A stretch of 64,000 bases of DNA, taken from an uncultured virus (IMG/VR IMGVR_UViG_3300032116_000047). Its lineage: Duplodnaviria > Heunggongvirae > Uroviricota > Caudoviricetes. Both the position numbers and the translations under genes were made by a program. A model generated the notes under the pieces. That model saw only the letters and a list, made by a program, of their open reading frames with translations. It searched no databases and had not been told where the DNA came from. This document shows positions 1 to 18,315 of this stretch, one piece after another. The first letter of the stretch is position 1. Every line of letters begins with the position of its first letter. Where the stretch lies: the IMG/VR virus record IMGVR_UViG_3300032116_000047; one strand, written 5' to 3'.

Positions 1-62
1 TCATTACTTGAGTTTGATAAAATGATATGATCAGAATGTAACCAGTCTACGTGCTTCATTTG

Positions 63-132
63 TACCGCGTATGAGGTTCGAACTCACTTAACATAGGATA
101 TGAGCCAATGTTCTTTTCCACTAAGCCGCGGC
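63..132 (-). tRNA. tRNA-Met (CAU), probably elongator; Ile2 not excluded; short D-arm
   Basis: Anticodon arm cattgg-CTCATAT-cctatg; T-arm gtgag-TTCGAAC-ctcat. Confidence 0.75.
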
Positions 133-138
133 ATTTTG

Positions 139-229
139 TACTCCAGGTCGGATTTGAACCGACAACGTTCACCACACAGGGTATGGGATTTTAAGTCCCA
201 TGCGTTTCAACCAGTTTCGCCACTGGAGC
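139..229 (-). tRNA. tRNA-Leu (UAA)
   Basis: tggga-CTTAAAA-tccca, long variable arm, A73. Confidence 0.9.
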
Positions 230-237
230 AATTTTTG

Positions 238-328
238 TACCTCAGGTCGGACTCGAACCGACAACGTTTGCCACTTGGGTACTAGATCCTAAGTCTAGCG
301 CGTTTCAACCAAATTTCGCCACTGAGGC
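238..328 (-). tRNA. tRNA-Leu (UAG)
   Basis: ctaga-CTTAGGA-tctag, long variable arm, GGTTCGAGTCC T-arm. Confidence 0.9.
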
Positions 329-350
329 AGTTTAACAGAGGAAAGTATTG

Positions 351-434
351 AGAGTGATTTTACTGAGGGACTTGAACCCTCAAAAGTTTGATTATAAGTC
401 AAATGTGTATACCAATTTCACGAAGTAACACTCT
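351..434 (-). tRNA. tRNA-Ile(UAU)-like element with an irregular, extended acceptor helix
   Basis: tttga-CTTATAA-tcaaa anticodon arm; gaggg-TTCAAGT-ccctc T-arm; acceptor ttact/agtaa extended by agagtg/cactct. Confidence 0.55.
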
Positions 435-450
435 TAATCACCATCTGTTG

Positions 451-523
451 TTGGAGATGTGGGTTACGATCCCACTACCTCTTGCATGTCGGGCAAGTGC
501 TCTACCAATTGAGCTAATCTCCA
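451..523 (-). tRNA. tRNA-Val (GAC)
   Basis: cttgc-CCGACAT-gcaag; T-loop ATCGTAA; U1-A72. Confidence 0.85.
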
Positions 524-529
524 ATTTTG

Positions 530-601
530 AGCTGATGGAGGGAGTCGAACCCACATATTTGCGTTACAAAGGCAATGTAATGACCATTATACGACATCAG
601 C
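530..601 (-). tRNA. tRNA-Thr (UGU)
   Basis: Loop TTTGTAA; acceptor gctgatg/catcagc; GGTTCGACTCC. Confidence 0.85.
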
Positions 602-610
602 GTTATGTTG

Positions 611-693
611 AGCACCTGGAGGGACTTGAACCCCCGTGACTGGGTTTGCAATCCAGTGCCTTCCGTATTTCTACTCCACTCGACCACAGGTGC
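611..693 (-). tRNA. tRNA-Cys (GCA) with enlarged D-loop
   Basis: Loop TTGCAAA; U73; D-loop insert gtagaaatac. Confidence 0.85.
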
Positions 694-703
694 TTATATG
701 TTG

Positions 704-777
704 TTGGACTGGCGGGTAACGATCCCACTACCTCGAAGGTATCAGCTTCGCGCTCTGACCATTTGAGCTACAGTCCA
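704..777 (-). tRNA. tRNA-Ile (GAU)
   Basis: cgaag-CTGATAC-cttcg; T-loop ATCGTTA. Confidence 0.85.
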
Positions 778-784
778 ATTTTTG

Positions 785-857
785 TAGTCCTGGTCGGTTA
801 CGATCCGACTCCCTCCACTATGTAACAGTGGCGCTCCCCCGATTGAGCTACAAGACT
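785..857 (-). tRNA. tRNA-Val (UAC)
   Basis: ccact-GTTACAT-agtgg; T-loop ATCGTAA. Confidence 0.85.
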
Positions 858-864
858 ATTTTTG

Positions 865-953
865 CGGGCCAGGCAGGATTCGAACCTACTTTATTTCAAT
901 TTTTCATACAGTGATTAACAGTCACCAGCTAAAACCAAATCAGCTACAAGCCC
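865..953 (-). tRNA. tRNA-Asn (GUU) with a long variable region
   Basis: ggtga-CTGTTAA-tcact; G73; about 20 nt variable loop. Confidence 0.8.
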
Positions 954-960
954 ATTTTAG

Positions 961-1033
961 TAACTCCTACAGGATTCGAACCTGTATCCTCGCTTTAGAA
1001 GAGCGATGTCCTGTCCCGTTGAACGAAGGAGCC
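961..1033 (-). tRNA. tRNA-Arg (UCU)
   Basis: tcgct-CTTCTAA-agcga; GGTTCGAATCC. Confidence 0.9.
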
Positions 1034-1043
1034 AAATTTTATT

Positions 1044-1080
1044 AAAACAAAAAACCCTCAGATTTTCATCTGAGGGTTCT
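1044..1080 (-). terminator. Intrinsic terminator (attenuator) upstream of tRNA array 1
   Basis: AACCCTCAGAT-gaaa-ATCTGAGGGTT followed by a U-tract, directly 5' of tRNA-Arg. Confidence 0.9.
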
Positions 1081-1107
1081 TTTTATATTTAGTTATAAAT
1101 TTACACT

Positions 1108-1221
1108 TTATAAGACAAATTTACTAAATACAGGAGAACCCTCAGATGGTCTAATATTACATAACGTAATATTCACCACATTGAGTGTCAGGTTCATCAT
1201 ATTTGTCATATTTGTTCTCAT
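1108..1221 (-). CDS. Leader peptide of tRNA array 1 (37 aa, MRTNMTNMMNLTLNVVNITLCNIRPSEGSPVFSKFVL)
   Basis: Read by hand; codons 1-24 encode only M,R,T,N,L,V,I,C, the amino acids of the downstream array; 1135-1148 is a perfect 14-nt complement of the terminator 5' arm. Confidence 0.85.
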   Translation of the reverse strand: MRTNMTNMMNLTLNVVNITLCNIRPSEGSPVFSKFVL

Positions 1222-1277
1222 TGTTGTTATATATAAAAAGTTACTACTCTCTTTAGAGTTTTTGTCATTATTTTATA

Positions 1278-1309
1278 CAAAAATAGAAAAAAGTTTTAAT
1301 TATACCAAA
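1278..1309 (-). promoter_or_regulatory. Bacteroidota sigma-A-type promoter (TTTG-N20-TATTTTTG) upstream of the array 1 leader
   Basis: Matches the established -33 TTTG / -7 TAnnTTTG consensus. Confidence 0.7.
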
Positions 1310-1341
1310 TTTTGCATTATAAATTTTAATATATATCTAAG

Positions 1342-1908
1342 ATGATGATAAAAAAATACTCCGAGTTTATAAGTGAAAGTCATTCAGATATCAAATCTGA
1401 TTTGATAAGTTATTTTGATTCTAATAAAAATGAGATTTTGAAAAAGGGTTTAGATTTTTACGAATTAAGAAATAAATTTGCACAATCAATTGATGCTCTA
1501 AATCCATTTTTTTTACAAAAAGTAAAAGATGATTTATCTAATATTGACACTTCTAATAAAGAGTTGTTTAAATCTACATTCGAAAACGTGCTATTAGAAA
1601 TAACAGAAGAATTGAAAAAAACAACAATAACTGAAAGTTTTTTCTCAACAATAAGTTCAATATGGTCTGAAATTAAAAACCATATTAAAAATGCTGTAAA
1701 ATGGATTTCAGATAGAATATGGAGCATTACTGGAATTATAACAATTGGATTAGCTGGTGCACTTTTTATTGTAAATCAATGGGGATCTGGAATAGGAATA
1801 CCAACTGAATTTGGTAATGTACTTATAAACACCGTTTTATTAATAGGAATAGCAGTTTTAAAATTCGGACAAAAAAATGATGAATATAAAAATATAAGTG
1901 AAATATGA
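1342..1908 (+). CDS. Hypothetical membrane protein with a CTS-like N-terminus
   Basis: 188 aa ORF, two C-terminal hydrophobic helices, MIKKYSEFISE start, TAATATATA upstream. Confidence 0.7.
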   Translation: MMIKKYSEFISESHSDIKSDLISYFDSNKNEILKKGLDFYELRNKFAQSIDALNPFFLQKVKDDLSNIDTSNKELFKSTFENVLLEITEELKKTTITESFFSTISSIWSEIKNHIKNAVKWISDRIWSITGIITIGLAGALFIVNQWGSGIGIPTEFGNVLINTVLLIGIAVLKFGQKNDEYKNISEI

Positions 1909-3602
1909 AACACATTAGAAACTATGAAAAGTTTAGAGAAAGTAGAAATCAATCTACAATTTCAGAAAATTCAAACAATGAATATTACTATAACTTAGGA
2001 AAAAAATCAAATAAATCAATTTTTGAATTAGAACTTTTATCAGAAGGATATTCTAAAGATATAGTAGGCTTAGTTAATGAAAATTTATCATTGTCAAAAA
2101 TCGATAATAGGATTATTGATTGTGTATGGGAATATTTAAATCAAGGCACTGAAAAAAAATTAGATTTACTTACAGAAGAATTAACAATTTTTGGAAAAAA
2201 ATTACCAACATTAGGTGATATGTATAACGGTGTGACAAATATCGTTGATAAAGGAATTGAGATAGGAAAATCAGTTGTAAAAAGTTTTAAAGATTTCTTA
2301 TCGAATATAGGAAATATAATCAAAAGTTTATTTACAAAAATAAAAAACTTCTTTGTAAAAGTTTGGGAAGCAACAAAACCTAAAATTACAGCAGCAATGG
2401 GTGTTATTAAAAAGGCAGTTGGCTCAGGAATGACTGACAAAATGAAAGGAGCTGTAGATACAATGTCTTCTGATAACGGTGTAAAAGAAATTTCGAGTTT
2501 ATCTCAAGATCTTAAAACAGTATGTGGTAAATTCTCAGCTGGTAATGTTGGGAATATGTCTGAAGACGCCGCAAAAAGATTAGAAGACGAAGCAGGTGAA
2601 TATAAAGATGTTGAAGGTGATGCTGATATTGAAAAACTAATGCAGGAATCACTTGAAAGAAGAGGAACTGTTGGTAAAATTTATTACTCAATAAAAGGTT
2701 TTATGACAGAAGGTGGTAAAATTGAAGAGATAAACTCTGCAATTTTTGAAGCAGAAGAAAAGAAAGTTGAGTTAAAAGAAGGAGATGAAGTAACTTATAC
2801 TAACAAAGAAGGAAAACAAGTAACAAAAGCAATAGAGAGAATCGAAGGAGAAGAGGCGGTATTTAAAGCTAAAGACGGAACAGAGTTTAAAAAACCAATT
2901 TCAGATTTGAAAAAGTCAGAAGGAATTGGGAAAAAATTAGCATCTGGATTTATTGGTGAAGAACCTGAAAAAAAAGGAGTATTTGGTTGGTTAGTTGAAT
3001 CTGTAGGATTTGTTTTTAATCCACTAGCTAAACTTAAAGAGACTTTAATTAAAGGAGGTACAAATGGAATCTGTATGGGAATTTCAGCACTAGCTAGAGG
3101 ATTGAAAAATGCAGTAAAATTTATAACGATAGGTGTAATTGCCGGTTTAGTTTATCATATAATTCATGGATTAATGACTTTGGCTGGTGGAGAAGGACAT
3201 GGAGGCGAAGGAGGTGAAGGAGGTGAAGGACATGGAGGTGAAAAAAATGAAGCTCCTGCTGCACCTAAAACAGAAATAAATTTAAAAAAGGAATCTTATA
3301 TTTTTGAAGCAGCTGAATTACAAGCCGACATGACTAAGAATAGTAAATTTACACCAAATTGGGAAGCAGTAAAAGGAGTTGCACTTCCGGCAGTTGGTGG
3401 TTTATTAATGGCTGCTCTTTCTCATTTTTTCCCAATAGTTCATACAATATTAGAATGCATACTTGTTGGAATAGGAATATTTGAGTTAGTGGGTGCAATT
3501 TGTAAAATACCAGCAATAAGCTCTAAAAAATTAAAAGTCTGTACATTACAACATCAAGCTCATCATTTCTTAGAGGCAAAATCTGGCGGAGCAGCACATT
3601 AA
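1905..3602 (+). CDS. Hypothetical protein with C-terminal hydrophobic helices and a Gly/Glu/His linker
   Basis: 565 aa ORF; GGEGHGGEGG low-complexity linker; start overlaps the upstream stop. Confidence 0.7.
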   Translation: MKHIRNYEKFRESRNQSTISENSNNEYYYNLGKKSNKSIFELELLSEGYSKDIVGLVNENLSLSKIDNRIIDCVWEYLNQGTEKKLDLLTEELTIFGKKLPTLGDMYNGVTNIVDKGIEIGKSVVKSFKDFLSNIGNIIKSLFTKIKNFFVKVWEATKPKITAAMGVIKKAVGSGMTDKMKGAVDTMSSDNGVKEISSLSQDLKTVCGKFSAGNVGNMSEDAAKRLEDEAGEYKDVEGDADIEKLMQESLERRGTVGKIYYSIKGFMTEGGKIEEINSAIFEAEEKKVELKEGDEVTYTNKEGKQVTKAIERIEGEEAVFKAKDGTEFKKPISDLKKSEGIGKKLASGFIGEEPEKKGVFGWLVESVGFVFNPLAKLKETLIKGGTNGICMGISALARGLKNAVKFITIGVIAGLVYHIIHGLMTLAGGEGHGGEGGEGGEGHGGEKNEAPAAPKTEINLKKESYIFEAAELQADMTKNSKFTPNWEAVKGVALPAVGGLLMAALSHFFPIVHTILECILVGIGIFELVGAICKIPAISSKKLKVCTLQHQAHHFLEAKSGGAAH

Positions 3603-3766
3603 GAATTTTTTTGAGATTTTCTTAATTTCCAATTCTCAACATCTTTTTCCATAAATTTTCTAATACGCTTAGAAACATTCATAGAATTTTCATCACAAAA
3701 TTGTTTGTATTCTTCTAATAATTTTTCTGGAATTCTTATTGAAAACATTTTATCTTTTGAAGCCAT
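3599..3766 (-). CDS. Ribbon-helix-helix (CopG/Arc-like) DNA-binding protein, 55 aa, not in the ORF track
   Basis: MASKDKMFSIRIPEKLLEEYKQFCDENSMNVSKRIRKFMEKDV...: beta-strand FSIRIP followed by two helices. Confidence 0.7.
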   Translation of the reverse strand: MASKDKMFSIRIPEKLLEEYKQFCDENSMNVSKRIRKFMEKDVENWKLRKSQKNS

Positions 3767-3807
3767 AGAAATACATTTTTATACATATATATAAATGTAT
3801 GTACGGT

Positions 3808-4362
3808 CTATTTTTTTCTTAAAAAATCTAAGTCTTCTAAAGATATTTTTATTCCGTGGTTAAATCTGTTGAAAAAATCAGCCAACTTTTTCAAGCTCTC
3901 ATCTCCAATTGCAAATAGTGTATTAGTAGGATCGAATTTAGAGTTATAAGTTGTGTCCTGATAAACTGTGACTCCTTTCTTACTAATTGTAAATTCACAA
4001 GCCATCTCATCTCCGAAGGTAATATCAACATCTAATCTTAGATTTGGAATATGCTTACCTGGACTTCTATCAAAATCAATTGTTCCTGAGCTAACTACAG
4101 TTGTTAAATCATTTCTTTTTTCTTCACTATCATCTTTAACAATATAAATATCAATTTCAAAAGTATCAGGAGCCATTGGATCTTCAATGCCATATGTTAT
4201 TTGAATCATATCAGCATTCAACATAACATTTCCTTTTTTATAAATCCATTTATCAATTCCATAATCTTGACCCTTAAAAACTGTTATAGTTTGAGGTAAC
4301 ATTTTTTCCCACTCAGAATTATAAATAGATATTCTCTCATTAAATCTTTTAAGATACTTCAT
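3808..4362 (-). CDS. Hypothetical protein (MKYLKRFNE start)
   Basis: 184 aa ORF with TATATA upstream. Confidence 0.7.
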   Translation of the reverse strand: MKYLKRFNERISIYNSEWEKMLPQTITVFKGQDYGIDKWIYKKGNVMLNADMIQITYGIEDPMAPDTFEIDIYIVKDDSEEKRNDLTTVVSSGTIDFDRSPGKHIPNLRLDVDITFGDEMACEFTISKKGVTVYQDTTYNSKFDPTNTLFAIGDESLKKLADFFNRFNHGIKISLEDLDFLRKK

Positions 4363-4372
4363 AAAGTATATA

Positions 4373-5107
4373 TTATTTTAATTTAATGAGTATGGGTAAA
4401 TGATCAGAAAGTGTGTTTTTATTTCCCTTATAAGAATAAATATAAACTTTACTCTCTATGATTTTATATTTTTTATCTACTAAAAAATGGTCATAGTTAT
4501 TTTCACTAACCGATCCATCTCTTTTAAGAGATGTTCCTTTACCACAAAGTGGCATGTTGAAGTATGTCTTTAGAGGAACATAAATAAGATGATTACAAGT
4601 AAGATTGAAATCTCCACAAATAAGACCATCCTTATAACAATACAAATCCTCAACTTCTTTTTGAGGAACTTTATTTGTTGGAACAAGATGAACTTGTCTT
4701 ATTGTTATATCTTTTTTGTTTATCTTAAAAGATGCCATAAATGGTTCTCTATCAATAGAATCTTGTAAGTTGGCATCTAATTTAGACCAATTAAGTTTTA
4801 TATTATTATTATAAAGAAAAGCGTATCTTTCAGATCCATTACCTGTAGTTTTAGATGAAATTGTATAATTATAATTTATAATTTTAGCAATTTTTATAAT
4901 ACAAGAATCACCATAAGGACCAGTTACAACTTCTTGAATAGCAATAATGTCAGCTTTTGATGATTTTATAACATTTGAAATCTGTGTAATAACAGAGTCT
5001 TTCTTAAACTTAGTCTCTCCTAAGTTTTGAATATTCCAAGAAAGTAGAGTCTGTGAATAGGTAAATGTTGTTATAAACATTAATAGAAATAGAATTAAAT
5101 TTTTCAT
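4373..5107 (-). CDS. Endonuclease/exonuclease/phosphatase (DNase I-like) protein with signal peptide
   Basis: Motifs SWNIQN, DIIAIQEV, GDFN, YDHF, SDHLPI; hydrophobic N-terminus. Confidence 0.9.
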   Translation of the reverse strand: MKNLILFLLMFITTFTYSQTLLSWNIQNLGETKFKKDSVITQISNVIKSSKADIIAIQEVVTGPYGDSCIIKIAKIINYNYTISSKTTGNGSERYAFLYNNNIKLNWSKLDANLQDSIDREPFMASFKINKKDITIRQVHLVPTNKVPQKEVEDLYCYKDGLICGDFNLTCNHLIYVPLKTYFNMPLCGKGTSLKRDGSVSENNYDHFLVDKKYKIIESKVYIYSYKGNKNTLSDHLPILIKLK

Positions 5108-5303
5108 TAAATTTGTTTTTATTTCTATTTATAAAAAAAGTACAGTTATTTTTTGGACTTCTTTTTTCTTTTGAATGTTTTAAGTATCAAACCAACACAA
5201 TCAATCTTTGATTTTTCTTTTTTGATTTCTCTAAAATAGGCTTTACTTCCCTGAAATTCACCTTTAATTACCACTTTATCTTCCATATCTCTTTAATTAT
5301 TTT

Positions 5304-5486
5304 TTATATAAAACCTTTAATTTTATTAGCTTCTATTTTAAAAACAACAAAGTCTTCAATTTTACAATTTTTTAAAATTGAGTTTCTGTCGAAAACTTTT
5401 CCAGATGGAAATGCAGTAAATGTTCCATCACTATTTTTGTAAATAGTGTAGAGCTTACCATCTAATATGTTTTTAAATATTGTCAT
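5304..5486 (-). CDS. Small hypothetical protein
   Basis: 60 aa ORF preceded by TAATATATA. Confidence 0.55.
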   Translation of the reverse strand: MTIFKNILDGKLYTIYKNSDGTFTAFPSGKVFDRNSILKNCKIEDFVVFKIEANKIKGFI

Positions 5487-5506
5487 TTAGTATATATTAA
5501 TTTTTG

Positions 5507-5545
5507 AGCGATAGGTGAGGTTCGAACTCACGACCCCACTCTCGC
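5507..5545 (-). pseudogene. tRNA-Gly minihelix (acceptor stem and T-arm only)
   Basis: gcgagag...ctatcgc-U73 plus gtgag-TTCGAAC-ctcac; D and anticodon arms absent. Confidence 0.65.
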
Positions 5546-5555
5546 GTTTTTAATG

Positions 5556-5643
5556 AGCAGGTAGTGGGATTCGAACCCACGGTGTGAACCTTATCTGACC
5601 GGATTGGAAATCCGGAGCCATCGACCAACTAGGCGATACCTGC
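5556..5643 (-). tRNA. tRNA-Gly (UCC) with a long variable region
   Basis: ccgga-TTTCCAA-tccgg; U73. Confidence 0.85.
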
Positions 5644-5648
5644 AATTG

Positions 5649-5722
5649 TGGACACATACGAGCCTCGAACTCGTGACTCCTGGGTGCAAACCAGGTATGA
5701 TAGCCGTCTTCACCAATGGCCC
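5649..5722 (-). tRNA. tRNA-Ala (UGC)
   Basis: cctgg-TTTGCAC-ccagg; G3:U70; one-nt bulge in the acceptor stem. Confidence 0.85.
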
Positions 5723-5729
5723 AATTTTG

Positions 5730-5810
5730 TCGACAAGGTGGGATTCGAACCCACGTTTTCAACTTCCCGCTACGTGTATAGAATGTATAAGATTCCAACG
5801 GTACTTGCCG
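5730..5810 (-). tRNA. Non-canonical, D-armless tRNA-Ile(UAU)-like RNA
   Basis: Acceptor cggcaag/cttgtcg + A73; T-arm gtggg-TTCGAAT-cccac; hairpin ggaat-CTTATAC-attct lies just after the acceptor 5' strand. Confidence 0.55.
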
Positions 5811-5844
5811 AAATAAAAAAACCCAGTCTTTTGAGACTGGGTTA
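5811..5844 (-). terminator. Intrinsic terminator (attenuator) upstream of tRNA array 2
   Basis: AACCCAGTCT-caaa-AGACTGGGTT followed by a U-tract. Confidence 0.9.
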
Positions 5845-5867
5845 AATAAATATGTAGAGTCAAAATC

Positions 5868-5948
5868 TTACATAACATAACTCAGTCTCTCGACTAAACG
5901 CCCCGCGCCTGTCGCTATAACTCCTGATATGTATGTGAAATTTTTCAT
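5868..5948 (-). CDS. Leader peptide of tRNA array 2 (26 aa, MKNFTYISGVIATGAGRLVERLSYVM)
   Basis: Codons 7-16 are ATA tca GGA gtt ATA GCG aca GGC GCG GGG; 5878-5889 matches the terminator 5' arm at 11/12. Confidence 0.8.
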   Translation of the reverse strand: MKNFTYISGVIATGAGRLVERLSYVM

Positions 5949-6003
5949 TGTTTCTATTTTATGTTATTATATATTAAAAGTTTTACTTTTCCCTTTAATT
6001 TTG

Positions 6004-6086
6004 TTGGAAGGGAGGGATTCGAACCCCCGTACTCGTAAGAGATTTGATTTACAGTCAAACGCATTTAGCCACTCTGCCACCTTCCA
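6004..6086 (-). tRNA. tRNA-Tyr (GUA)
   Basis: tttga-CTGTAAA-tcaaa; variable arm. Confidence 0.9.
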
Positions 6087-6093
6087 ATATTTG

Positions 6094-6170
6094 AACTACC
6101 CATAGGACTCGAACCCATAACCCTCGGGCCGTGTGACCCGTGTGCAAACCAATTTACACCATAAGTAGTT
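6094..6170 (-). tRNA. tRNA-like gene, anticodon undetermined (6-nt loop CACACG); possible pseudogene
   Basis: D-arm, cgggt/gcccg stem and GGGTTCGAGTCC T-arm present; loop irregular. Confidence 0.5.
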
Positions 6171-6265
6171 AATCAAGTAGATATATCAGAAATTACTGGT
6201 ACCAAATCTCACTGCGATATGTGATACATCTTCTTGTTAGAGTCGGTTAATTACTCCGACTTTTG

Positions 6266-6337
6266 TAGTCCCACGGAGGATCGAACTCCGATTTCTAGGA
6301 TGAAAACCTAACGTCCTAACCATTAGACGATGGGACC
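6266..6337 (-). tRNA. tRNA-Glu (UUC)
   Basis: tagg-TTTTCAT-ccta; acceptor ggtccca/tgggact. Confidence 0.9.
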
Positions 6338-6344
6338 ATATTTT

Positions 6345-6479
6345 TTATTCATATCCTAATATGAATATTTCGTATAAAACTTCATCATTAAATGTAGAAA
6401 AACTACAAGGGTCAAATTGTTCAAAGTTTTTACACCAAGCTTTGAATACTTTAGACTTTATAGAAGGAACTCTTTTCAT
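6345..6479 (-). CDS. Small hypothetical protein (likely start MKRVPS)
   Basis: Follows the TTTG-N20-TATCTTTG promoter; the upstream extension in the ORF track overlaps the terminator. Confidence 0.45.
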   Translation of the reverse strand: MKRVPSIKSKVFKAWCKNFEQFDPCSFSTFNDEVLYEIFILGYE

Positions 6480-6498
6480 ATTTGTTTCTTTTGTTTTA

Positions 6499-6530
6499 CA
6501 AAGATAAGGTAACTTTTCAAATCTACCAAA
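6499..6530 (-). promoter_or_regulatory. Bacteroidota-type promoter TTTG-N20-TATCTTTG downstream of the array 3 attenuator
   Basis: Consensus match. Confidence 0.7.
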
Positions 6531-6550
6531 TCTTTTTAAAATATTTTTAA

Positions 6551-6586
6551 ATAAAAAAACCCAGACCGAAATCGGACTGGGTTTGT
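6551..6586 (-). terminator. Intrinsic terminator (attenuator) upstream of tRNA array 3
   Basis: AAACCCAGtCCG-attt-CGGtCTGGGTTT followed by a U-tract. Confidence 0.85.
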
Positions 6587-6603
6587 TTAAAGTAATCAAA
6601 TCG

Positions 6604-6675
6604 TTACAACATACAAACTCGTCCGACTGGGTTTAAACCCTCGGCTTCGTAATAATATGTTGCTAATCCTTTCAT
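6604..6675 (-). CDS. Leader peptide of tRNA array 3 (23 aa, MKGLATYYYEAEGLNPVGRVCML)
   Basis: TAT TAT TAC GAA gcc GAG run matches downstream tRNA-Tyr and tRNA-Glu; 6613-6626 is complementary to the terminator 5' arm. Confidence 0.8.
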   Translation of the reverse strand: MKGLATYYYEAEGLNPVGRVCML

Positions 6676-6693
6676 ACTTTTTAATTTTTTTAG

Positions 6694-6766
6694 TAGCGGG
6701 GGCCGGACTCGAACCAGCGACCTCTAGGTTATGAGCCTAGCGAGCTACCAACTACTCCACCCCGCA
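6694..6766 (-). tRNA. Initiator tRNA-fMet (CAU)
   Basis: Unpaired U1:U72; ctagg-CTCATAA-cctag; lies upstream of leader 3, so outside attenuation. Confidence 0.85.
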
Positions 6767-6839
6767 ATATTTTTATTGTATGTGTATATATAAAAAAGTT
6801 TTATTCTCTTTTAGAAAATTATTAAATAATATATACTTT

Positions 6840-7286: not shown

Positions 7287-7289
7287 GTT

Positions 7290-7688: not shown

Positions 7689-7696
7689 ATTAAAAA

Positions 7697-8664: not shown

Positions 8665-8748
8665 ATCATTTATATTTAATTTTTTTAGTTAGTTGTTTGA
8701 AAAAGATATTTGTAAAATAATATATACTCTATAAAATAATTTATATTA

Positions 8749-11700: not shown

Positions 11701-13218
11701 TCTGGAATATTTGATATTAATACTTCTAATGGACTGACTATCATTTCTGATAGCGTTCAAGTTGCTGATACTATTTCTGGTAAAGGTTTAACTTTCTCAT
11801 CCGGTGTTATTGATATCAATTTAGGTTTAAATAGTGGTTTAACTTTTTCTGGAGATGATGTAATAGTTGATACAAATATCGCTGGAAACGGGCTTGATAT
11901 TTCAAGTGGTGTTCTTACAGTTAATACTTCAGAAATAACTACAAGCTTATCTGGTAGTGGTCTTACTGCTAATGGTTCAACATTAGATGTTAATGTAGGA
12001 AATGGTTTAGAATTAGTATCAGACCAAATTTATTTGGGTGGAACACTTTCTCAAAACACAACAATTAATGCATCAAACTATGGATTATATTTTGAAGGTG
12101 ATTCCGTAATAGATAATTATGTAAATGATCCTAATAGTTTCCCAGATATTTATGGACAGGTGAATTTGACATCTCAAATTTATGACGCCAGAATAGGAAG
12201 TATTTCAGGGAATACATTTTCAAGAGTTACAATACAAAGTAACGGTTTAATTTTAGAAAATCAAGATGATTCGGGTTCTCAAGTTGCAATTCAAGTTTCT
12301 CTGACCACTTCATATGTTAATGATGGTTCGTCAAATAATAGGTTAGTTGTAATTGATGACTTATCACAAAAGGGACTTGTTTATTCTAGTGATTACACCT
12401 CTAACTTCACTACCCATTCACTTGTGACAAAAGGTTATGTTGATTCAGTGGCTGGATCAATTGGAGCTACTAACGGTATTTCTGAATTATCAAGTGGAAT
12501 TATAGGATTAGGAGGAACACTTTCACAAACAACAATTATTGATACTTCAACATATGATTTTACAATAAATTCAAGCTCAAGTGAGATAGAACTAAATAGA
12601 ATTTCTACTACTTATCCTACCGTTACAAACACATTCAGACTAGAAGATAAGTATGCAATTATTAAGTCAGAGAGTTCAATCTACTCTTCATTTATAGAAC
12701 TATCAAATGAGGATAATGGTCAAGCAATGGCAGATATTAAGATTGATCTTGGAACATACAGTAATATTATCAGATCTACAAATAACAGTATATCAACTGT
12801 AGTATCATCAATCGATGGTAGCGGATCATACTCTTCTGTTTGGTTATTTAATTCTTCACAATCACTAACAAGTGGTGATTTAACGACAAATAATCATTTA
12901 ATAATAACAGACCAATTAGGAAATAAAGGTTTAGTCTATGATGAAGACTACTCTCTCAATTTCTCAAATAACTCATTAGTTACTAAAAGTTATGTTGACT
13001 CAAATTCAACATCTAAATACTCAATAACTAGAGGATTTACAGCATCGGTAACCGAAACAATAACTCATAATTTAGGAACTGATGAAATTATAGTTCAAGC
13101 TTATGATTCAACTGGAGTAATGGTAATTCCTGGAACAGTTCAGATAAATGGAACAAACGATGTTGATATAACATTTAGTAGTACACTATCAAGTATAAAA
13201 ATAATAGTAATAGGATAA
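8749..13218 (+). CDS. Large virion/tail-fibre-like protein with YVTN-type beta-propeller repeats
   Basis: About 7 repeats of VGxxPxGxAYDxxNNRIYVxN; repeated GxGLT and SLVxKxYVD motifs. Confidence 0.8.
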   Translation: MSLVIFGGSVSMITTATPSTGWVVAYDTDGIIKQKDSAGVITPIGGGPTAGSGSTASLSQVLQVGNNSDIYSIIMGTSTSIRSARGGGRIELDKSGTNSISITTDNGLQSEHGIILENSNSSIFSNNYKQALKLWDGTGNTTLYNSSGQGGILLGVSTGSVVSTELDEVKIAFNAFTFSTTSNTPKQSVFIGTKNSKFEAGVENSVILGGQGLTASQSDSVYVPDLYIQNQKGIKTTDSNEVFYLKASDGSTYIDRNSGLFDKSWIWTNSNYNSKREWIEIGVNSDSGYGTNSVIQIYNSKGPSYSWFAYSQLILDKENLKLESVDLDTTGDNINIVLDASINSAEIEGPFGTFRGIEYVQDYSASYSLRSLVDKDYVDTQISSANSPTLFSVLSSGNNSNNQNIIMGTSTYIKSANGGGRIDLDFISNVNTVLISTDDGGISNAYIKLQNGDIELQSINNSTFIFNEALVQSGDGKGIQYDSDYSSTFDTHSLIDKLYVDTGTNSIWNYISNCPTGSGVANYVPKWTAQKNISGTSSMWISEGVSDNSLLTSLPVGTAPYDVAFDSYNKRLYVANSSTNNITVYDSINYLIIGTISVGTFPNAVEFDSENNRVYVANRNSANVTIIDTLTNTITGTVSVGTFPVGLNYDSVNNRVYVACQTSNQVSVIDTTTLTNSATFSTSTPRGLAYDPVNNNIYVAGVGPDKVACIDASTGTITATVSVGTNPYGLAYDSLNQRIYVSNYVSNNVSVIDAITNTVISTIAVGSNPEGIEYDALNNRIYVTNTSSSNVSVISSDTNTVITTITLSGVPRGLAYDFLNSRIFVTNTSTNTVQIISTMNRKDGFVGVNTINPISELDVRGKITTEEFRLTTGANSGYFLVSDTLGNATWQYPIIEIIGGTGLTGSGTAGVITIVVELEENGGLTFSSIGEITTDFTTLASSLQGSGLTANAGVLDINANNGITIINDVVQISDTAAGNGLTFSSGIFDINTSNGLTIISDSVQVADTISGKGLTFSSGVIDINLGLNSGLTFSGDDVIVDTNIAGNGLDISSGVLTVNTSEITTSLSGSGLTANGSTLDVNVGNGLELVSDQIYLGGTLSQNTTINASNYGLYFEGDSVIDNYVNDPNSFPDIYGQVNLTSQIYDARIGSISGNTFSRVTIQSNGLILENQDDSGSQVAIQVSLTTSYVNDGSSNNRLVVIDDLSQKGLVYSSDYTSNFTTHSLVTKGYVDSVAGSIGATNGISELSSGIIGLGGTLSQTTIIDTSTYDFTINSSSSEIELNRISTTYPTVTNTFRLEDKYAIIKSESSIYSSFIELSNEDNGQAMADIKIDLGTYSNIIRSTNNSISTVVSSIDGSGSYSSVWLFNSSQSLTSGDLTTNNHLIITDQLGNKGLVYDEDYSLNFSNNSLVTKSYVDSNSTSKYSITRGFTASVTETITHNLGTDEIIVQAYDSTGVMVIPGTVQINGTNDVDITFSSTLSSIKIIVIG

Positions 13219-13233
13219 AATAAATTATAAAAT

Positions 13234-16200
13234 ATGCCAAAAATATACGGAAGTTCAGAGATATGGGGTGATTTGTTAGTAACAGGTTCTTTTTCAATAT
13301 TAGGGTCCTCATCAACAATTAATACTACTTCGCTAGTGGTTTCAGATTCAATAATTGCCTTAGGACATAGTCAGTCAGGTACTCCTGTTTTAGACGAAGG
13401 TTTTATGTTTGTTAGAGGTACTGGTCTAACTCAAGCATTTATATGGGATGAGTCTGATGACACTTTTGCTCTTATTGGAACAAATGATGACCACACAATT
13501 ACCGGTGACATAAATATAAACTCGTACTCTAATTTAAGACTTGCTGGATTAACGACATCTACTTTAACAATTTCAAACGGAGCTGTTAATGGTTATTACT
13601 TACAAACAGATGGATCAGGTAACACAACATGGGTTTCTATTTCCGGTGGATTAACAGGTTCTGGAACGATAAATTATGTTCCTCATTGGACTAACTCAAA
13701 TACACTTTCTTCAACGAGTAGTATTTATAACATAGGGGAAAATGTAGGTATAAATACAGTTCTACCATCAGCTCAATTAAACATCAAAGCTAACAATGGT
13801 TTAAATACAGAATATGGTTTAAAAGTAGAAGGTAATACAGGGTTAAATCTATTAAAAGTATCAAAGTTAGGAAGAGTTGGAATAGGAACTGGATTATTAA
13901 CAGATCCATCACATGAAGTTGAAATAAATAGCTTATCAGCAAATAATCTAATTTATGCAGAAAATAGCAATAATATTTCAGATGCTATAATTAGAGTTAA
14001 AACAACTGGAGCTGGAAATTCCTTCAATTCTCAATTAGTATCCGAGAACTCTACTGGAAACACACTTAAAATGATTTCATTTGGTTCTGCTTATTCAATT
14101 TATCCAGAATTTGCTGATAATCAAGCAATAGTTTATACAAATAGTTTACTATTCAATAACGGAAATACAACAAGAGCCACTTTAACTTCAACAGGGAATT
14201 TCGGAATTGGCACAGCCTCACCAAACTATAAATTAGAAGTATCAGGAACAGTTTCAACAACTGGACTTAGAATGACCAGTGGTGCAAACAGTGGTTATGT
14301 TTTAACATCAGATGCTTCTGGAAATGCTTCTTGGTCTCAACTATCGGGTGGATTAACAGGTTCTGGTACAACCAATTATATTTCTAAATGGACAGGAGTC
14401 GGAACTCTTGGTAATTCCCTAATTCAGGATGATTCATCATCAGTTGGAATTGGAACGGCTCCAACTGGTCCATATAGATTATGGATAGTAGATCAAAGAG
14501 TACAAAGTACTAAATATGGTTTACTTTCACAAGTTGAAGGGAATAATTTTTCAACGACTAATATTGGATTGTTCTCGTATGTGTCAGGAGCGACATCTAG
14601 AAATGTTGGTCTTAGAGCAAATGTTTATGGGACTTACGGTGTTGTACAGGGAATTAATGTTGAGCTTGGAGGGTCTACTACTTTTGCTGATACTATTGGA
14701 GTTTCGACTTTTATTAGTTCATCAATAAATTCATCTACTTCGATTTATGGAGGTTATATGTTGAATCAAGGTTCAGCATCGTTCAAATACGGAAATTTTA
14801 TTCAAGTTTCAGGTAATGGAGTTTCAAACACAAATTATGGTTCTTACTTAAATATATCAGGCGCAAATAATATTAACTACGGAAACTATACTTTAGTAAA
14901 TGGAACTTTTAGTTCTGTAAAATATGGAAGCTTTATTAACATTTCAGATAGTAATGGTACAAATACTCAGAATTTTGGAATTAGAACTGATGTTAATGGT
15001 GGTTGGACTAATAAAGGTATTTTTTCAGTGATTGGATCAAGTGTAGCAAGTGTGAATGATGATGTAGGTATTTACTCCTATGTGTCAGGTTTAGTAACGT
15101 CAAGTCAAAGCGTATCACACGCTGGCTACTTCTGGAATAACACTCAAAAAACTAATAAATATGGAATAACAGCAAGAGCTGATGGCAATAACATATCAAC
15201 AACAAATTATGGTATTTATTCAGCCGCATCAGGAGCAAGTAACGCCAACTATGGAGTTTATTCACAAGTATCGGGAACATTTGGCACGACTAAAGGTGGT
15301 TACTATTCTCTTTTAAGAGGAAATTCGAGTTATAACATCGGATCAATTTTTAATATTGATGAAGGTGCATATAATGTTGGATTATCGATTGGACTTGGTA
15401 ACAATCTTACACCAAATCAAGATTTTGGAATCTTAAATTACGTGTCACCAAGTTATGTAAGTAATCAAACACAATTATCTAATCATTACATATCAAACAC
15501 AGGAACAGTAAATGTTAAATATGGAACTAATACACAAATTTCTGGTAATGGTAAATCAATTACAAATTATGGATTATATAACTCCATATCAGGAGCAAAT
15601 AGTGCTAACTATGGATTTTTTAATATTGTGTCAGGAACAGCCAGTGCTAACTATGGAATTTATACTAATGTATCCTTAGCATCATCTATTACATATGGTA
15701 ATTATGTTATTTTAAACTCAGGAACCGGTGGTACATATTACGGAAGTTATATAGATATTTCTCAAGGTGTTGGAAATAATACATTTGGTAATAATAACTA
15801 TGGTCAGTATATAAGTAATTATGGAAGCGCATCGACAAATACCGGTTTATACGTACAAGTTAATAATGGTGGGAGCAATAATGCACTATGGGCATCGGTT
15901 GGTAGTCAAGTTTTCTCAAGTGGTGATAAAGCAGTATATGGATATGTTGGAAATAACGCTAAAAATACAACAGATTCAGCTTATGGCGGATATTTTGATA
16001 ACAGGTCTCTTACGACAAACACAAGTTTCGGATTAGGAGCCATAGTATCATCTACATCATCATCTGCAAATTATGGTTTATATGTTGATTCTTCCGGAAC
16101 AACAACAAATTATGGAGTTGTAGTAAATAGAGGCACATCAATCTTTAATGATTCTGGTGAAAATTTTGATTTCAGAATTGAAGGTTTAACTGAGTCTAAC

Positions 16201-16428
16201 TTACTTTTTGTTGATGCATCGAATGATAATATAGGTATAGGAACTAGCACACCGAATGCTAAATCTATGTTAGATATAAACTCAACGACTAAAGGATTTT
16301 TACCACCAAGAATGACAACATCTCAAAGAGAAGCAATCATTTCTCCACCAGCTGGATTAATGATTTTTAATACAGATAATTCAAAACATGAAGGATATAC
16401 AGGTACTACTTGGTCAGGATTCTATTGA
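13234..16428 (+). CDS. Tail-fibre-like beta-repeat virion protein
   Basis: NVGIGT and GYVLTSDASGNASW motifs, many NYG repeats, C-terminal KGFLPPRMT motif. Confidence 0.75.
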   Translation: MPKIYGSSEIWGDLLVTGSFSILGSSSTINTTSLVVSDSIIALGHSQSGTPVLDEGFMFVRGTGLTQAFIWDESDDTFALIGTNDDHTITGDININSYSNLRLAGLTTSTLTISNGAVNGYYLQTDGSGNTTWVSISGGLTGSGTINYVPHWTNSNTLSSTSSIYNIGENVGINTVLPSAQLNIKANNGLNTEYGLKVEGNTGLNLLKVSKLGRVGIGTGLLTDPSHEVEINSLSANNLIYAENSNNISDAIIRVKTTGAGNSFNSQLVSENSTGNTLKMISFGSAYSIYPEFADNQAIVYTNSLLFNNGNTTRATLTSTGNFGIGTASPNYKLEVSGTVSTTGLRMTSGANSGYVLTSDASGNASWSQLSGGLTGSGTTNYISKWTGVGTLGNSLIQDDSSSVGIGTAPTGPYRLWIVDQRVQSTKYGLLSQVEGNNFSTTNIGLFSYVSGATSRNVGLRANVYGTYGVVQGINVELGGSTTFADTIGVSTFISSSINSSTSIYGGYMLNQGSASFKYGNFIQVSGNGVSNTNYGSYLNISGANNINYGNYTLVNGTFSSVKYGSFINISDSNGTNTQNFGIRTDVNGGWTNKGIFSVIGSSVASVNDDVGIYSYVSGLVTSSQSVSHAGYFWNNTQKTNKYGITARADGNNISTTNYGIYSAASGASNANYGVYSQVSGTFGTTKGGYYSLLRGNSSYNIGSIFNIDEGAYNVGLSIGLGNNLTPNQDFGILNYVSPSYVSNQTQLSNHYISNTGTVNVKYGTNTQISGNGKSITNYGLYNSISGANSANYGFFNIVSGTASANYGIYTNVSLASSITYGNYVILNSGTGGTYYGSYIDISQGVGNNTFGNNNYGQYISNYGSASTNTGLYVQVNNGGSNNALWASVGSQVFSSGDKAVYGYVGNNAKNTTDSAYGGYFDNRSLTTNTSFGLGAIVSSTSSSANYGLYVDSSGTTTNYGVVVNRGTSIFNDSGENFDFRIEGLTESNLLFVDASNDNIGIGTSTPNAKSMLDINSTTKGFLPPRMTTSQREAIISPPAGLMIFNTDNSKHEGYTGTTWSGFY

Positions 16429-16434
16429 TTTTAG

Positions 16435-16521
16435 CGGAGAACAGAGGAATTGAACCCCATACCAATGTACAGTACAACTCGCTTAGCAGGCGGTCCTAAT
16501 CACCAGATTAGTTTATTCTCC
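16435..16521 (-). tRNA. tRNA-Ser (GCU)
   Basis: Loop CTGCTAA; long variable arm; G73. Confidence 0.85.
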
Positions 16522-16527
16522 TTTTTG

Positions 16528-16605
16528 CGGAAGAGTGAGGTATCGATCTCCATACCACGAAAGTACCACTAGTTTTAAGACTAGGTCAAGCTTAATTACT
16601 CTTCC
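16528..16605 (-). pseudogene. Degenerate tRNA-Ser, probably (UGA) with a 1-nt anticodon deletion
   Basis: Ser-type body (G73, long variable arm); ctagt-CTTAAA-actag 6-nt loop; reduced D-arm. Confidence 0.55.
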
Positions 16606-16611
16606 TTATTG

Positions 16612-16686
16612 TAGTTCCAGAGGGATTCAAACCCTCACATTTCTCGGTTCGTAGCCGAGTGTTTTGTTCAGTTAAACTATGGAACT
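16612..16686 (-). tRNA. tRNA-Arg (ACG)
   Basis: ctcgg-CTACGAA-ccgag. Confidence 0.85.
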
Positions 16687-16697
16687 ATATCAGTTTG

Positions 16698-16768
16698 CAC
16701 ACCTGCTTGGGCTCGAACCAAGAACACTGATTTTGGAGATCAGCATGATACCATTTCACCACAGATGT
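16698..16768 (-). tRNA. tRNA-Trp (CCA)
   Basis: ctgat-CTCCAAA-atcag; G73. Confidence 0.9.
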
Positions 16769-16775
16769 ATTTTAG

Positions 16776-16846
16776 CGCGGATGTAGAGATTCGAACTCTA
16801 ACGGTGAGGGGTTGGAATCCTACCGACTAAACCTACGCTCATCCGC
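16776..16846 (-). tRNA. Atypical tRNA, probably Trp (CCA)
   Basis: Acceptor gcggatg/catccgc, G73, TTCGAAT T-loop, loop TTCCAAC; weak D and anticodon stems. Confidence 0.5.
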
Positions 16847-16860
16847 GTGTTTATTTTTAG

Positions 16861-16932
16861 TGGAGACTGACAGAATCGAACTGACCTCTTCCGGGCTTCA
16901 ACCGGACGCTAAACCAACTTAGCTAAGTCTCC
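16861..16932 (-). tRNA. tRNA-Phe (GAA)
   Basis: tccgg-TTGAAGC-ccgga. Confidence 0.85.
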
Positions 16933-16936
16933 TTTG

Positions 16937-17011
16937 GGTGTTAGACGGGACTTGAACCCGCGACCTCTGGATTCACAATCCAGCACTCTCAACCATCTGA
17001 GCTACTAACAC
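16937..17011 (-). tRNA. tRNA-His (GUG), C73, no encoded G-1
   Basis: ctgga-TTGTGAA-tccag. Confidence 0.9.
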
Positions 17012-17013
17012 AG

Positions 17014-17086
17014 TGATCCCGGTGGGGTTCGAACCCACGACCCCCTCATTAAAAGTGAGGTGCTCTACCAACTGAGCTACGAAATC
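17014..17086 (-). tRNA. tRNA-Lys (UUU)
   Basis: cctca-CTTTTAA-tgagg. Confidence 0.9.
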
Positions 17087-17094
17087 ATATTTAG

Positions 17095-17167
17095 TGGACC
17101 CGGTGGGTTACGATCCCACTCTCCCTCCGTTAAAAGCGGAGTGCTTTCCCGATTAAGCTACGAGTCC
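17095..17167 (-). tRNA. tRNA-Lys (UUU), second divergent copy
   Basis: ctccg-CTTTTAA-cggag; T-loop ATCGTAA. Confidence 0.85.
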
Positions 17168-17175
17168 AAAATTTG

Positions 17176-17248
17176 TGGAACGGGTGGGTATAGAACCCAC
17201 TCCTCTGGATTTTCAGTCCAGCGCAATCACCTGATCTGCCACCATTCC
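17176..17248 (-). tRNA. tRNA-Phe (GAA), second divergent copy
   Basis: ctgga-CTGAAAA-tccag. Confidence 0.85.
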
Positions 17249-17258
17249 AAATTATTAT

Positions 17259-17295
17259 AAAACAAAAAAGTCCGAACTTTTTACGGTTCAGACTT
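17259..17295 (-). terminator. Intrinsic terminator (attenuator) upstream of tRNA array 4
   Basis: AAGTCTGAAC-cgtaaaaa-GTTCGGACTT followed by a U-tract. Confidence 0.85.
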
Positions 17296-17321
17296 CACAA
17301 GTATTTATAATCTATAAGTTA

Positions 17322-17423
17322 TTACACTTCTAAATTTGAGCAATACTCTTTTAGTACCGAACCAAAGTGACTAAACCACTTCGACGATCTACTAAAATGC
17401 TTATGTGTGCGAATTGCTCTCAT
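17322..17423 (-). CDS. Leader peptide of tRNA array 4 (33 aa, MRAIRTHKHFSRSSKWFSHFGSVLKEYCSNLEV)
   Basis: Codons 7-20 encode only H,K,F,S,R,W, the amino acids of the downstream array; 17353-17363 pairs with the terminator 5' arm. Confidence 0.85.
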   Translation of the reverse strand: MRAIRTHKHFSRSSKWFSHFGSVLKEYCSNLEV

Positions 17424-17480
17424 TGTTGTTATATATTGAATTGTTAAACTCTCTTTTTAATTATTTGTCATTATCTTATA

Positions 17481-17512
17481 CAAAATTAGTAAAATGTTTT
17501 AAATCTACCAAA
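17481..17512 (-). promoter_or_regulatory. Bacteroidota-type promoter TTTG-N20-TAATTTTG upstream of the array 4 leader
   Basis: Consensus match; region resembles 1222-1310. Confidence 0.7.
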
Positions 17513-17534
17513 TTTTTGTGTAATTTTTTTGATT

Positions 17535-17747: not shown

Positions 17748-17866
17748 AATAATTTTAATTTTTAATATATAGTAAAAATTAATTTCCCTATGACTTCTAC
17801 CAGAAAAGGGTTCTGAAAATCAAACTTTACGATTATCGGAAATCCATGTCATGAAACATCATGATA

Positions 17867-18292: not shown

Positions 18293-18315
18293 TGTTTAAA
18301 ATTTTACAATTAAAT

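Follow-up and report, generated by a model that had tools for sequence, protein, structure and literature searches.

Leader-peptide attenuation as the probable control of phage tRNA arrays

What governs the tRNA genes that a phage carries? To our knowledge, the regulation of phage-borne tRNA genes is essentially unknown; the question is raised afresh by a stretch of 64,000 nucleotides (nt) from an uncultured virus (IMG/VR record IMGVR_UViG_3300032116_000047; Caudoviricetes), taken to be a large phage with Bacteroidota-type hosts and referred to here, at its full length, as the window. Its tRNA genes stand in four arrays, each behind a short upstream open reading frame (uORF) and a transcription terminator, and the residues of each uORF recall the amino acids of the tRNAs that follow. 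Judging from the sequence features set out below, we think it highly probable that these cassettes are multivalent leader-peptide transcription attenuators, which would make the phage tRNA arrays responsive to demand.

Four cassettes and their tRNA arrays

The window is AT-rich (G+C approximately 30%) and by ARAGORN default calls holds 21 tRNA genes, all on the minus strand between positions 61 and 17248, to which Rfam and relaxed ARAGORN settings add Met(cat) at 61–134, Ile(tat) at 5729–5810, Trp at 16775–16846 and Ser(gct) at 16436–16523. Twenty of the 21 default-call tRNAs sit behind one of four cassettes, each running from a short ATG-initiated uORF (37, 26, 23 and 33 amino acids) through a strong hairpin and T-tract into the tRNA genes; Met(cat) at 6693–6766 is the sole default-call tRNA with no cassette in front of it. 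The component parts are as follows:

1278–1309, minus: Bacteroidota-type promoter (TTTG-N-TAnnTTTG, found by regular-expression scan, as are the two below), before leader 1
1108–1221, minus: leader 1 uORF, 37 amino acids, MRTNMTNMMNLTLNVVNITLCNIR-PSEGSPVFSKFVL; residues 2–24 are only M, R, T, N, L, V, I and C
1135–1148, minus: predicted antiterminator of leader 1 (codons 25–29), complementary to the terminator 5′ arm at all 14 nt
1049–1082, minus: intrinsic terminator 1
61–1033, minus: array 1, Arg(tct), Asn, Val(tac), Ile(gat), an atypical tRNA (610–693), Thr, Val(gac), Ile(tat), Leu(tag), Leu(taa) and Met(cat, relaxed call)
5868–5948, minus: leader 2 uORF, 26 amino acids, MKNFTYISGVIATGAGRLVERLSYVM; antiterminator candidate at 5879–5889
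5820–5843, minus: intrinsic terminator 2
5555–5810, minus: array 2, Ile(tat) (relaxed call, 5729–5810), Ala(tgc) and Gly(tcc)
6693–6766, minus: tRNA-Met(cat), upstream of leader 3 and behind a phage motif at 6785–6796
6604–6675, minus: leader 3 uORF, 23 amino acids, MKGLATYYYEAEGLNPVGRVCML
6557–6584, minus: intrinsic terminator 3, with one T-T mismatch in the stem
6499–6530, minus: Bacteroidota-type promoter between terminator 3 and tRNA-Glu, also present in the related contig G001
6003–6337, minus: array 3, Glu(ttc) at 6265–6337 and Tyr(gta) at 6003–6086
17481–17512, minus: Bacteroidota-type promoter, before leader 4
17322–17423, minus: leader 4 uORF, 33 amino acids, MRAIRT-HKHFSRSSKWFSHF-GSVLKEYCSNLEV; predicted antiterminator at 17352–17364
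17267–17296, minus: intrinsic terminator 4
16436–17248, minus: array 4, Phe, Lys, Lys, His, Phe, Trp (relaxed call), Trp, Arg(acg), an uncalled type-II-like gene (approximately 16525–16600) and Ser(gct) (relaxed call)

An intrinsic terminator thus lies between uORF and tRNAs in all four cases: the hairpins have folding free energies (dG) of −12.9 to −18.6, each is followed by a T-tract, and the stem begins 19–28 nt after the uORF stop codon. From the stem to the first tRNA there are then 15 nt (leader 1), 9 nt (leader 2, taking the relaxed Ile call) or 18 nt (leader 4); gaps of 9–18 nt are too short to hold a promoter of their own, such that arrays 1, 2 and 4 would be expressed only by read-through of the terminator. 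One extended promoter sequence is common to the sites at 1309, 17512 and 6530, and to leader promoters in LR745206.1, a 634,780-bp record from an uncultured phage and the one related record found by Megablast.

An earlier, sequence-only reading of the window had given all four cassettes the same order of promoter, uORF, terminator and tRNA genes. The four cassettes are indeed found, but it is tRNA-Met, and not a promoter, that directly precedes leader 3. The same reading counted Cys amongst the tRNAs of array 1; the gene concerned (610–693) is atypical, with a GCA in a 7-nt loop and an enlarged D region, and whilst we read it as ‘Cys’ from that loop, relaxed ARAGORN returns Ser(act). That said, Cys(gca) is called at ARAGORN default in the homologous arrays of survey loci L217/L404 and L281.

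Other tRNA genes of the window are also unusually long or atypical: Asn at 864–953 (90 nt), Gly at 5555–5643 (89 nt), and Ile(tat) at 5729–5810, which carries an insertion. The type-II-like gene near 16525–16600 (minus strand) escapes the calls of every tool, and Ser(gct) of array 4 matches the Rfam tRNA-Sec model with 45 bits. Array 1 may itself run on past the start of the window.

Leader composition and array content

Does the composition of each uORF follow the tRNAs behind it more closely than chance would allow? Taking as a baseline the 243 ATG open reading frames of 20–60 amino acids in the window, and scoring runs of residues that belong to the amino acids of the array (‘in-set’ residues, relaxed tRNA sets), we see a run of 23 in leader 1 and of 14 in leader 4 (residues 7–20, only H, K, F, S, R and W), neither of which is reached by any other of the 243. 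With default tRNA calls these runs become 11 (1/243) and 4 (20/243), respectively. Leader 3 has a run of 4 (YYYE; 1/243), and the value for leader 2, reached by 3 of the 243 small reading frames, is weak when taken alone. The proposal that leaders mirror their arrays in four cases out of four is therefore strongly borne out for leaders 1 and 4 and moderately for leader 3, but weakly for leader 2.

The wider survey draws on two scans of viral contigs by terminator sequence, which returned at least 121 and 117 stretches, with full flanks for 80 of each; these loci and the window form the set, with L001–L031 left out as duplicates of L032–L039. Sites were accepted where a same-strand tRNA lies no more than 400 nt downstream of the terminator, and an ATG uORF of 12–60 amino acids ends 15–45 nt before it. 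Eighty-three terminator sites have a tRNA downstream and 78 have a qualifying uORF, giving 62 unique leaders and, upon clustering at 50% identity with one representative retained per cluster, 38 leader–array pairs. The mean fraction of in-set residues in these pairs is 0.311, as compared to 0.135 with arrays shuffled (0/20,000 shuffles), and for residues 8–19 it is 0.441 as compared to 0.141 (again 0/20,000). All 20 amino acids have a higher mean count in leaders whose array holds the matching tRNA; moreover, the short flanks truncate many arrays, which works against the concordance signal. The sequence-only reading had expected leaders and arrays to agree beyond shuffled pairings, and the real pairing beats 20,000 of 20,000; it had also held that a composition not tracking the arrays of homologous loci would count against it, and the opposite is seen, in that leaders do track their arrays.

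The match is specific to the reading frame. In frame, the in-set fraction is 0.367, as compared to 0.118 and 0.113 in the two other frames, and the uORF frame scores highest in 31 of the 38 pairs; regulatory codons cognate to the regulated genes, a hallmark of attenuators, are thus present at the level of the amino acid and in a frame-specific manner. In an alignment of 12 leader 1 homologues, the gap blocks within the first 100 columns, from sensor codons to antiterminator, are all multiples of three, and the order of the sensor residues drifts from sequence to sequence as their composition stays. At sites with room on both sides, a uORF precedes 49 of 50 terminators that have a tRNA after them, versus 73 of 180 that do not.

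Homologous terminators bear different sensor blocks, in line with the array that each precedes. Leaders of unlike arrays also end similarly (...SYVM, ...SYGI, ...NYVVM, ...NYVFMIS, ...FVL, ...IVM), and many start M-K/R-T-I/L-N-N-I; going by these sequences, the cassettes resemble paralogues whose sensor block alone has been rewritten. Amongst the four leaders of the window, in-set codons have a third-position G+C (GC3) of 0.47 and other codons one of 0.31, versus 0.18 in long reading frames, with rare G/C-ending codons including GGC/GGG, GCG, CGC and CTG; constraints of RNA structure, or a decoding kept slow on purpose, may lie behind this. In bacterial and archaeal contigs, a search with the same, narrow terminator pattern gave at least 140 sites; amongst the 140 listed, one has a tRNA downstream and none a uORF, such that the cassette left no trace in the cellular genomes covered.

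The design is conserved across many phages, being common though not universal. Homologues of leader 2 occur in survey loci L085, L097, L116, L103, L033 and L406, and of leader 3 in L097, L033, L107, L102 and L116. LR745206.1 has 61 tRNAs, an estimated 52 or so of them behind seven leader cassettes:

LR745206.1: leader with H/K/F/S/W codons, before His, Phe, Trp and Lys tRNAs
LR745206.1: S/R-rich leader, before Arg(acg) and Ser(tga)
LR745206.1: leader with YESYYEE, before Glu and Tyr
LR745206.1: I/A/G-rich leader, before Ile(tat), Gly and Met(cat)
LR745206.1: P/Q/D-rich leader, before Pro and Asp
LR745206.1: poly-Q leader, before three Gln tRNAs
LR745206.1: a homologue of leader 1

Comparison of this record with the window provides a natural experiment: in the window, Arg(acg) is a direct member of array 4, and leader 4 includes Arg codons; in LR745206.1, Arg and Ser tRNAs come behind a separate S/R-rich leader, and the H/K/F/W leader upstream is without an Arg codon.

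As the four arrays of the window lack Asp, Pro and Gln, a further array behind a D/P/Q-rich leader had been predicted elsewhere in the genome, and relatives supply it. G001, a 436-kb contig from a close relative whose leaders are nearly identical to those of the window, has a leader with NPQPQDQDP in front of exactly Gln, Asp and Pro, approximately 14 kb past array 1 and hence at a place that would fall outside the window; Gln/Asp/Pro arrays behind D/P/Q-rich leaders are found likewise in LR745206.1, G003, G006 and several other contigs. Whole-record counts, made for G003, G005 and G006 with G002 and G004 left out, place 32 of 33 tRNAs behind seven cassettes in G003 (385 kb) and 21 of 26 behind two in G006 (249 kb); G005 is taken up below.

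The cultured Cellulophaga phage phi4:1 (survey locus L278, NC_021788.1) has the same design. Its first uORF, MKIQRLHLQELEQPIISGGTGV, stands with its terminator before Pro, Glu, Gln, His, Leu, Leu and Arg; the second leader is gp075 (9990–10109), a reading frame that lies within the tRNA array and bears the annotation ‘hypothetical protein’; it probably starts at an internal GTG and precedes Ala, Lys, Ile, Gly, Met, Asp, Thr, Val, Arg, Met and Tyr. The ATG of the first leader comes 4 nt past the last promoter element, a spacing that suggests a leaderless mRNA. As to RNA, two metatranscriptome runs hold a small share of the window's sequence words, and contigs of a relative (approximately 92% alike) cover 1040–1312, 5816–5967 and 6529–6715; these contigs span three leaders but, with DNA carry-over possible, are uninformative on transcript ends, strand or level, as are the stretches left uncovered.

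Antiterminator pairing, the proposed switch and its alternatives

How might the composition of a leader be coupled to transcription of its array? In our model, transcription would begin at the promoter upstream of the uORF, the first 20 or so codons of which would demand the amino acids of the tRNAs encoded downstream. With smooth reading, the ribosome would come to lie on or past the tail segment of the uORF, the terminator hairpin would fold, and the transcript would end before the tRNAs. Should charged tRNA be scarce for any one of the sensor codons, the ribosome would stall upstream and the tail would stay free, to pair with the 5′ arm of the terminator once this had been made; RNA polymerase would then read into the array. 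Since the new phage tRNAs would relieve the stall, each array would form a negative-feedback loop for its own amino-acid set. Translation of the uORF, the direction of the switch and the physiological cue behind it (be it starvation, the codon demand of an infection, or host tRNA cleavage) are parts of the model that we infer; a link between the arrays and host anticodon nucleases is speculation on our part.

Complementarity between tail and terminator is seen directly. In leader 1 the two pair perfectly over 14 nt (dG −21.2, 0/500 shuffles), and leader 4 also gives a significant value (dG −13.1, 2/500). Across the 38 representatives, tails and their own terminator arms have a summed dG of −417.9, versus −300.6 ± 14.7 with the arms of other cassettes (0/500 permutations); against shuffled sequence the mean z is −2.24, with 20 of the 38 below −2. 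An antiterminator that shares the 5′ arm and can be masked by a ribosome is therefore a property of the family as a whole, and within the window leaders 1 and 4 show it at a significant level. Tail and arm vary together: inspection by eye shows variant arms to go with matching tails (...tcggatt with aatccga, ...tcgaatc with gattcga), and in the leader 1 family of 12 homologues 79.5% of alignment cells are paired, versus 25–49% for slid partners, with a covariation score of 0.108 versus 0.063 (1/500); at the pair 98–160, five sequences have CG and five have UA.

Folding of the full leader and terminator at equilibrium, with a masked ribosome, gives a switch only in leader 1 of the window (stall at codons 5–16), leader 3 (codons 8–10) and, in part, leader 4. 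For leader 1, masking codons 5–16 cuts the probability (P) of the terminator from 0.97 to 0.0–0.6, with 0.0–0.2 at 10 of the 12 codons and 0.0 at codons 11–16. In truncated folding, where transcripts end before the 3′ arm of the terminator and the position of the ribosome is varied, the 5′ arm is paired upstream with a mean P of 0.70 when the ribosome is at codons 6–15, versus 0.39 when it is at the last codons; the difference between early and late positions exceeds 0.2 in 29 of 41 leaders, and P falls just where the sensor block ends. Leader 1 also has a candidate 1:2 hairpin over codons 10–30 that would sequester the antiterminator, with 84% of cells paired across its family versus 31–46% for slid partners; amongst the leader 1 homologues this hairpin shows no covariation. 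A segment of the leader 3 uORF mimics, by eye, the 5′ arm of its terminator, and could pair with the 3′ arm.

Several observations weigh against our model and have to be set beside this evidence. The case is built from sequence, from which both translation of the uORFs and regulated read-through are predicted. An array anticodon can decode 230 of the 276 in-set codons, and codon usage alone leads one to expect 220; with no excess at the isoacceptor level, the match exists at the amino-acid level only, and the idea that leaders reflect their tRNAs codon by codon is not supported. Use of the Ile codon ATA in leaders does not track the presence of Ile(tat), and several leader Gly codons are GGC while the arrays concerned hold only Gly(tcc). 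Homologous pairs share ancestry, such that the permutations are not independent trials. Each uORF had been credited with a segment complementary to the terminator 5′ arm: this stands for leaders 1 and 4, but pairing is modest in leader 2 (dG −9.7, 53/500 shuffles) and weak in leader 3 (dG −9.5, 89/500), neither being significant alone. In most leaders the terminator wins at equilibrium (P approximately 0.95), so that the masked-footprint folding proposed in the sequence-only reading yields a switch in the three leaders named above and a dominant terminator in the rest; the decision would then have to be co-transcriptional, or kinetic, as in classical attenuators. A ribosome on the stop codon of leaders 1 and 4 leaves the antiterminator uncovered, and termination there would need timing or steric hindrance. 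Past terminator 3 lies the promoter at 6499–6530, which has its counterpart in G001, and by it array 3 can bypass the attenuator. Lastly, just 11 of the 35 tRNAs in G005 (362 kb) lie behind its two cassettes, which tells against a universal design, although the counting rule, by splitting arrays at gaps of more than 700 nt and ignoring non-ATG starts, makes this figure an under-count.

What else could the cassettes be? They might be generic sensors of translation rate, with uORF and terminator reporting overall ribosome speed or availability and the amino-acid match a secondary bias. Such sensors would sit well with leaders that are matched to between two and eight amino acids together, with the unrelated N-terminus (M-K/R-T-I/L-N-N-I...) and similar C-termini that many leaders share, with the absent isoacceptor match, and with G/C-ending codons (GC3 of 0.47 and 0.31, versus 0.18) that could simply slow decoding. 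We nevertheless regard this as unlikely: the composition differs sharply amongst the cassettes of one genome and tracks the array in 38 clusters (0/20,000), the association extends to all 20 amino acids, and homologous terminators carry a different sensor block for each array. Less likely still is that the uORFs are self-contained mini-genes, each ended by its own terminator, with the tRNAs transcribed from separate promoters; the promoter past terminator 3 and the phi4:1 annotation, where one such reading frame is a hypothetical protein, would fit, but just 9–18 nt separate terminator and first tRNA for leaders 1, 2 and 4, and composition tracking, antiterminator covariation and the fixed spacing of 15–45 nt would be left unexplained.

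To a logic of the opposite sign, in which smooth translation would promote read-through, with a ready supply of tRNA leading to yet more of it, or the ribosome would shield the transcript from Rho or nucleases, we attach the same slight probability as to mini-genes. We infer the direction of the switch, which leaves room for it, but the uORF stops 19–28 nt (in the window) or 15–45 nt (elsewhere) before the terminator, from where a terminating ribosome cannot melt the hairpin, and the complementary segment is part of the uORF itself, where it would be covered by a ribosome in the course of translation. Least probable of all, we believe, are chance reading frames in AT-rich spacers, or micropeptides acting in trans and unrelated to the tRNAs: small reading frames are common in the window, as its 243 of 20–60 amino acids attest, but the shuffles, the frame test, the 49 of 50 versus 73 of 180 in the control and the comparison with those 243 all speak against this, as does a sensor block in which order drifts but composition is kept.

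Known systems, significance and surroundings

Set against known systems, the cassettes would most likely put ribosome-mediated attenuation to a new use and in a new form, as demand-driven feedback. Multivalent leader attenuators control the enterobacterial operons ilvGMEDA, ilvBN and thr, with trp, his, leu and pheA as further examples of leader attenuation. In common with these, the phage cassettes have a short leader reading frame with regulatory codons, a terminator, and a mutually exclusive antiterminator that a ribosome can mask; leader 1 may add a 1:2 hairpin like that of trp. They differ in that their targets are tRNA genes and not biosynthetic enzymes, in addressing up to eight amino acids per leader through mixed blocks rather than single-residue runs, in their phage setting with Bacteroidota-type promoters and no Rfam leader-family match, and in a feedback that would go through tRNA supply and not amino-acid synthesis. 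That the targets are tRNAs, and not genes for biosynthesis, transport or synthetases, leaves the class of mechanism unaffected.

In Escherichia coli pheST, with its pheM leader, attenuation controls Phe-tRNA synthetase; here too the target is a translation component for the amino acid sensed, but pheST responds to one amino acid and the target is protein-coding, whereas the phage target would be the tRNA itself, with several isotypes per leader. T-box riboswitches bind uncharged tRNA directly, with no need of translation. They likewise respond to how much of a specific charged tRNA is at hand, with terminator and antiterminator as the two outcomes; the phage sensor is predicted, by contrast, to be a translated reading frame. 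Within positions 1–18500, neither the T-box nor any other Rfam leader family matches at E ≤ 1, the only matches being to the tRNA clan (tRNA, tRNA-Sec and tmRNA fragments) along with weak chance hits.

The general principle of leader-peptide attenuation is given in an excerpt of PMC1183508. Leaderless short-reading-frame attenuators are described, in the corresponding excerpts, for Cys genes behind mycobacterial poly-Cys uORFs (bioRxiv 10.1101/834739) and for the branched-chain amino-acid genes ilvBNC of Corynebacterium glutamicum (PMC11857589). The very short or absent 5′ untranslated region of these recalls the first leader of phi4:1, its ATG 4 nt past the promoter; unlike the phage cassettes, they are bacterial and serve one amino-acid class each. 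Amongst the listings and abstract openings returned by full-text literature searches, there is no description of leader-peptide attenuation of tRNA genes.

If our model is correct, the cassettes would provide a first cis-regulatory logic for phage tRNA genes, and the first leader-peptide attenuation acting on tRNA genes. Phage tRNAs would be made on demand and not constitutively; the phage would gauge the decoding capacity of the infected cell for each amino acid and top up only the shortfalls, and the grouping of tRNAs into particular arrays would have a reason. Taken more broadly, it seems probable to us, again from comparison of sequences, that modular attenuators matched to their arrays by codon composition form an undescribed and widespread class of phage cassette, whereby every tRNA array of the large Bacteroidota phages, those of cultured Cellulophaga phages amongst them, would be its own demand-driven loop, possibly providing an automatic answer to host defences that cleave tRNA. 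‘Hypothetical proteins’ within tRNA arrays, such as phi4:1 gp075, would be re-annotated as regulatory leaders, and the cassettes would offer synthetic biology natural ribosome-based sensors of several amino acids. As the design is present in a cultured phage–host pair, that of phi4:1, the model is directly testable.

Turning to the surroundings of the cassettes, a second, promoter-like phage motif recurs in the window:

1228–1239, minus: promoter-like phage motif TTTTTATATATA, just 5′ of the leader 1 ATG
1228, 1324, 5968, 6785, 17760, 36803, 42267, 45482 and 63350: sites of the motif TTTTWATATATA

The nine matches to TTTTWATATATA compare with 0.6 expected; the motif precedes leader 1, leader 2 (5968–5979), tRNA-Met (6785–6796) and several protein genes, often with AAAGrGA approximately 10 nt upstream, and may, going by this distribution, be a phage-specific promoter. 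The promoter of the tRNA array itself varies in place, being downstream of the leader 3 attenuator in the window and G001 and upstream of the homologous leader in LR745206.1; cassette parts appear, on this comparison, to have been shuffled between relatives.

Between the promoter at 6499–6530 and tRNA-Glu lies a 146-nt stretch (6339–6484, minus strand) holding a 44-amino-acid reading frame (6345–6479) that has no Pfam match. It is skipped exactly by an RNA-library contig of a relative (joint 6338/6485) and is missing from G001, a pattern that marks it as an indel polymorphism. Pfam searches of 14 neighbouring reading frames gave no domain that bears on the attenuation mechanism. Directly upstream of the array 4 cassette is a YqeY-like gene (17867–18292, minus strand; Pfam PF09424, E = 6.6e-21); the YqeY family is associated with GatB-type tRNA-dependent amidotransferases. 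Some part of positions 1–9000 of the window is present in the 20 rows listed, from 15 studies, amongst which one may be where this DNA came from; near-identical DNA to the same positions (at least half of the sampled words) is present in the 18 runs listed, which are labelled as freshwater, lake or ‘fungus’ metagenomes.

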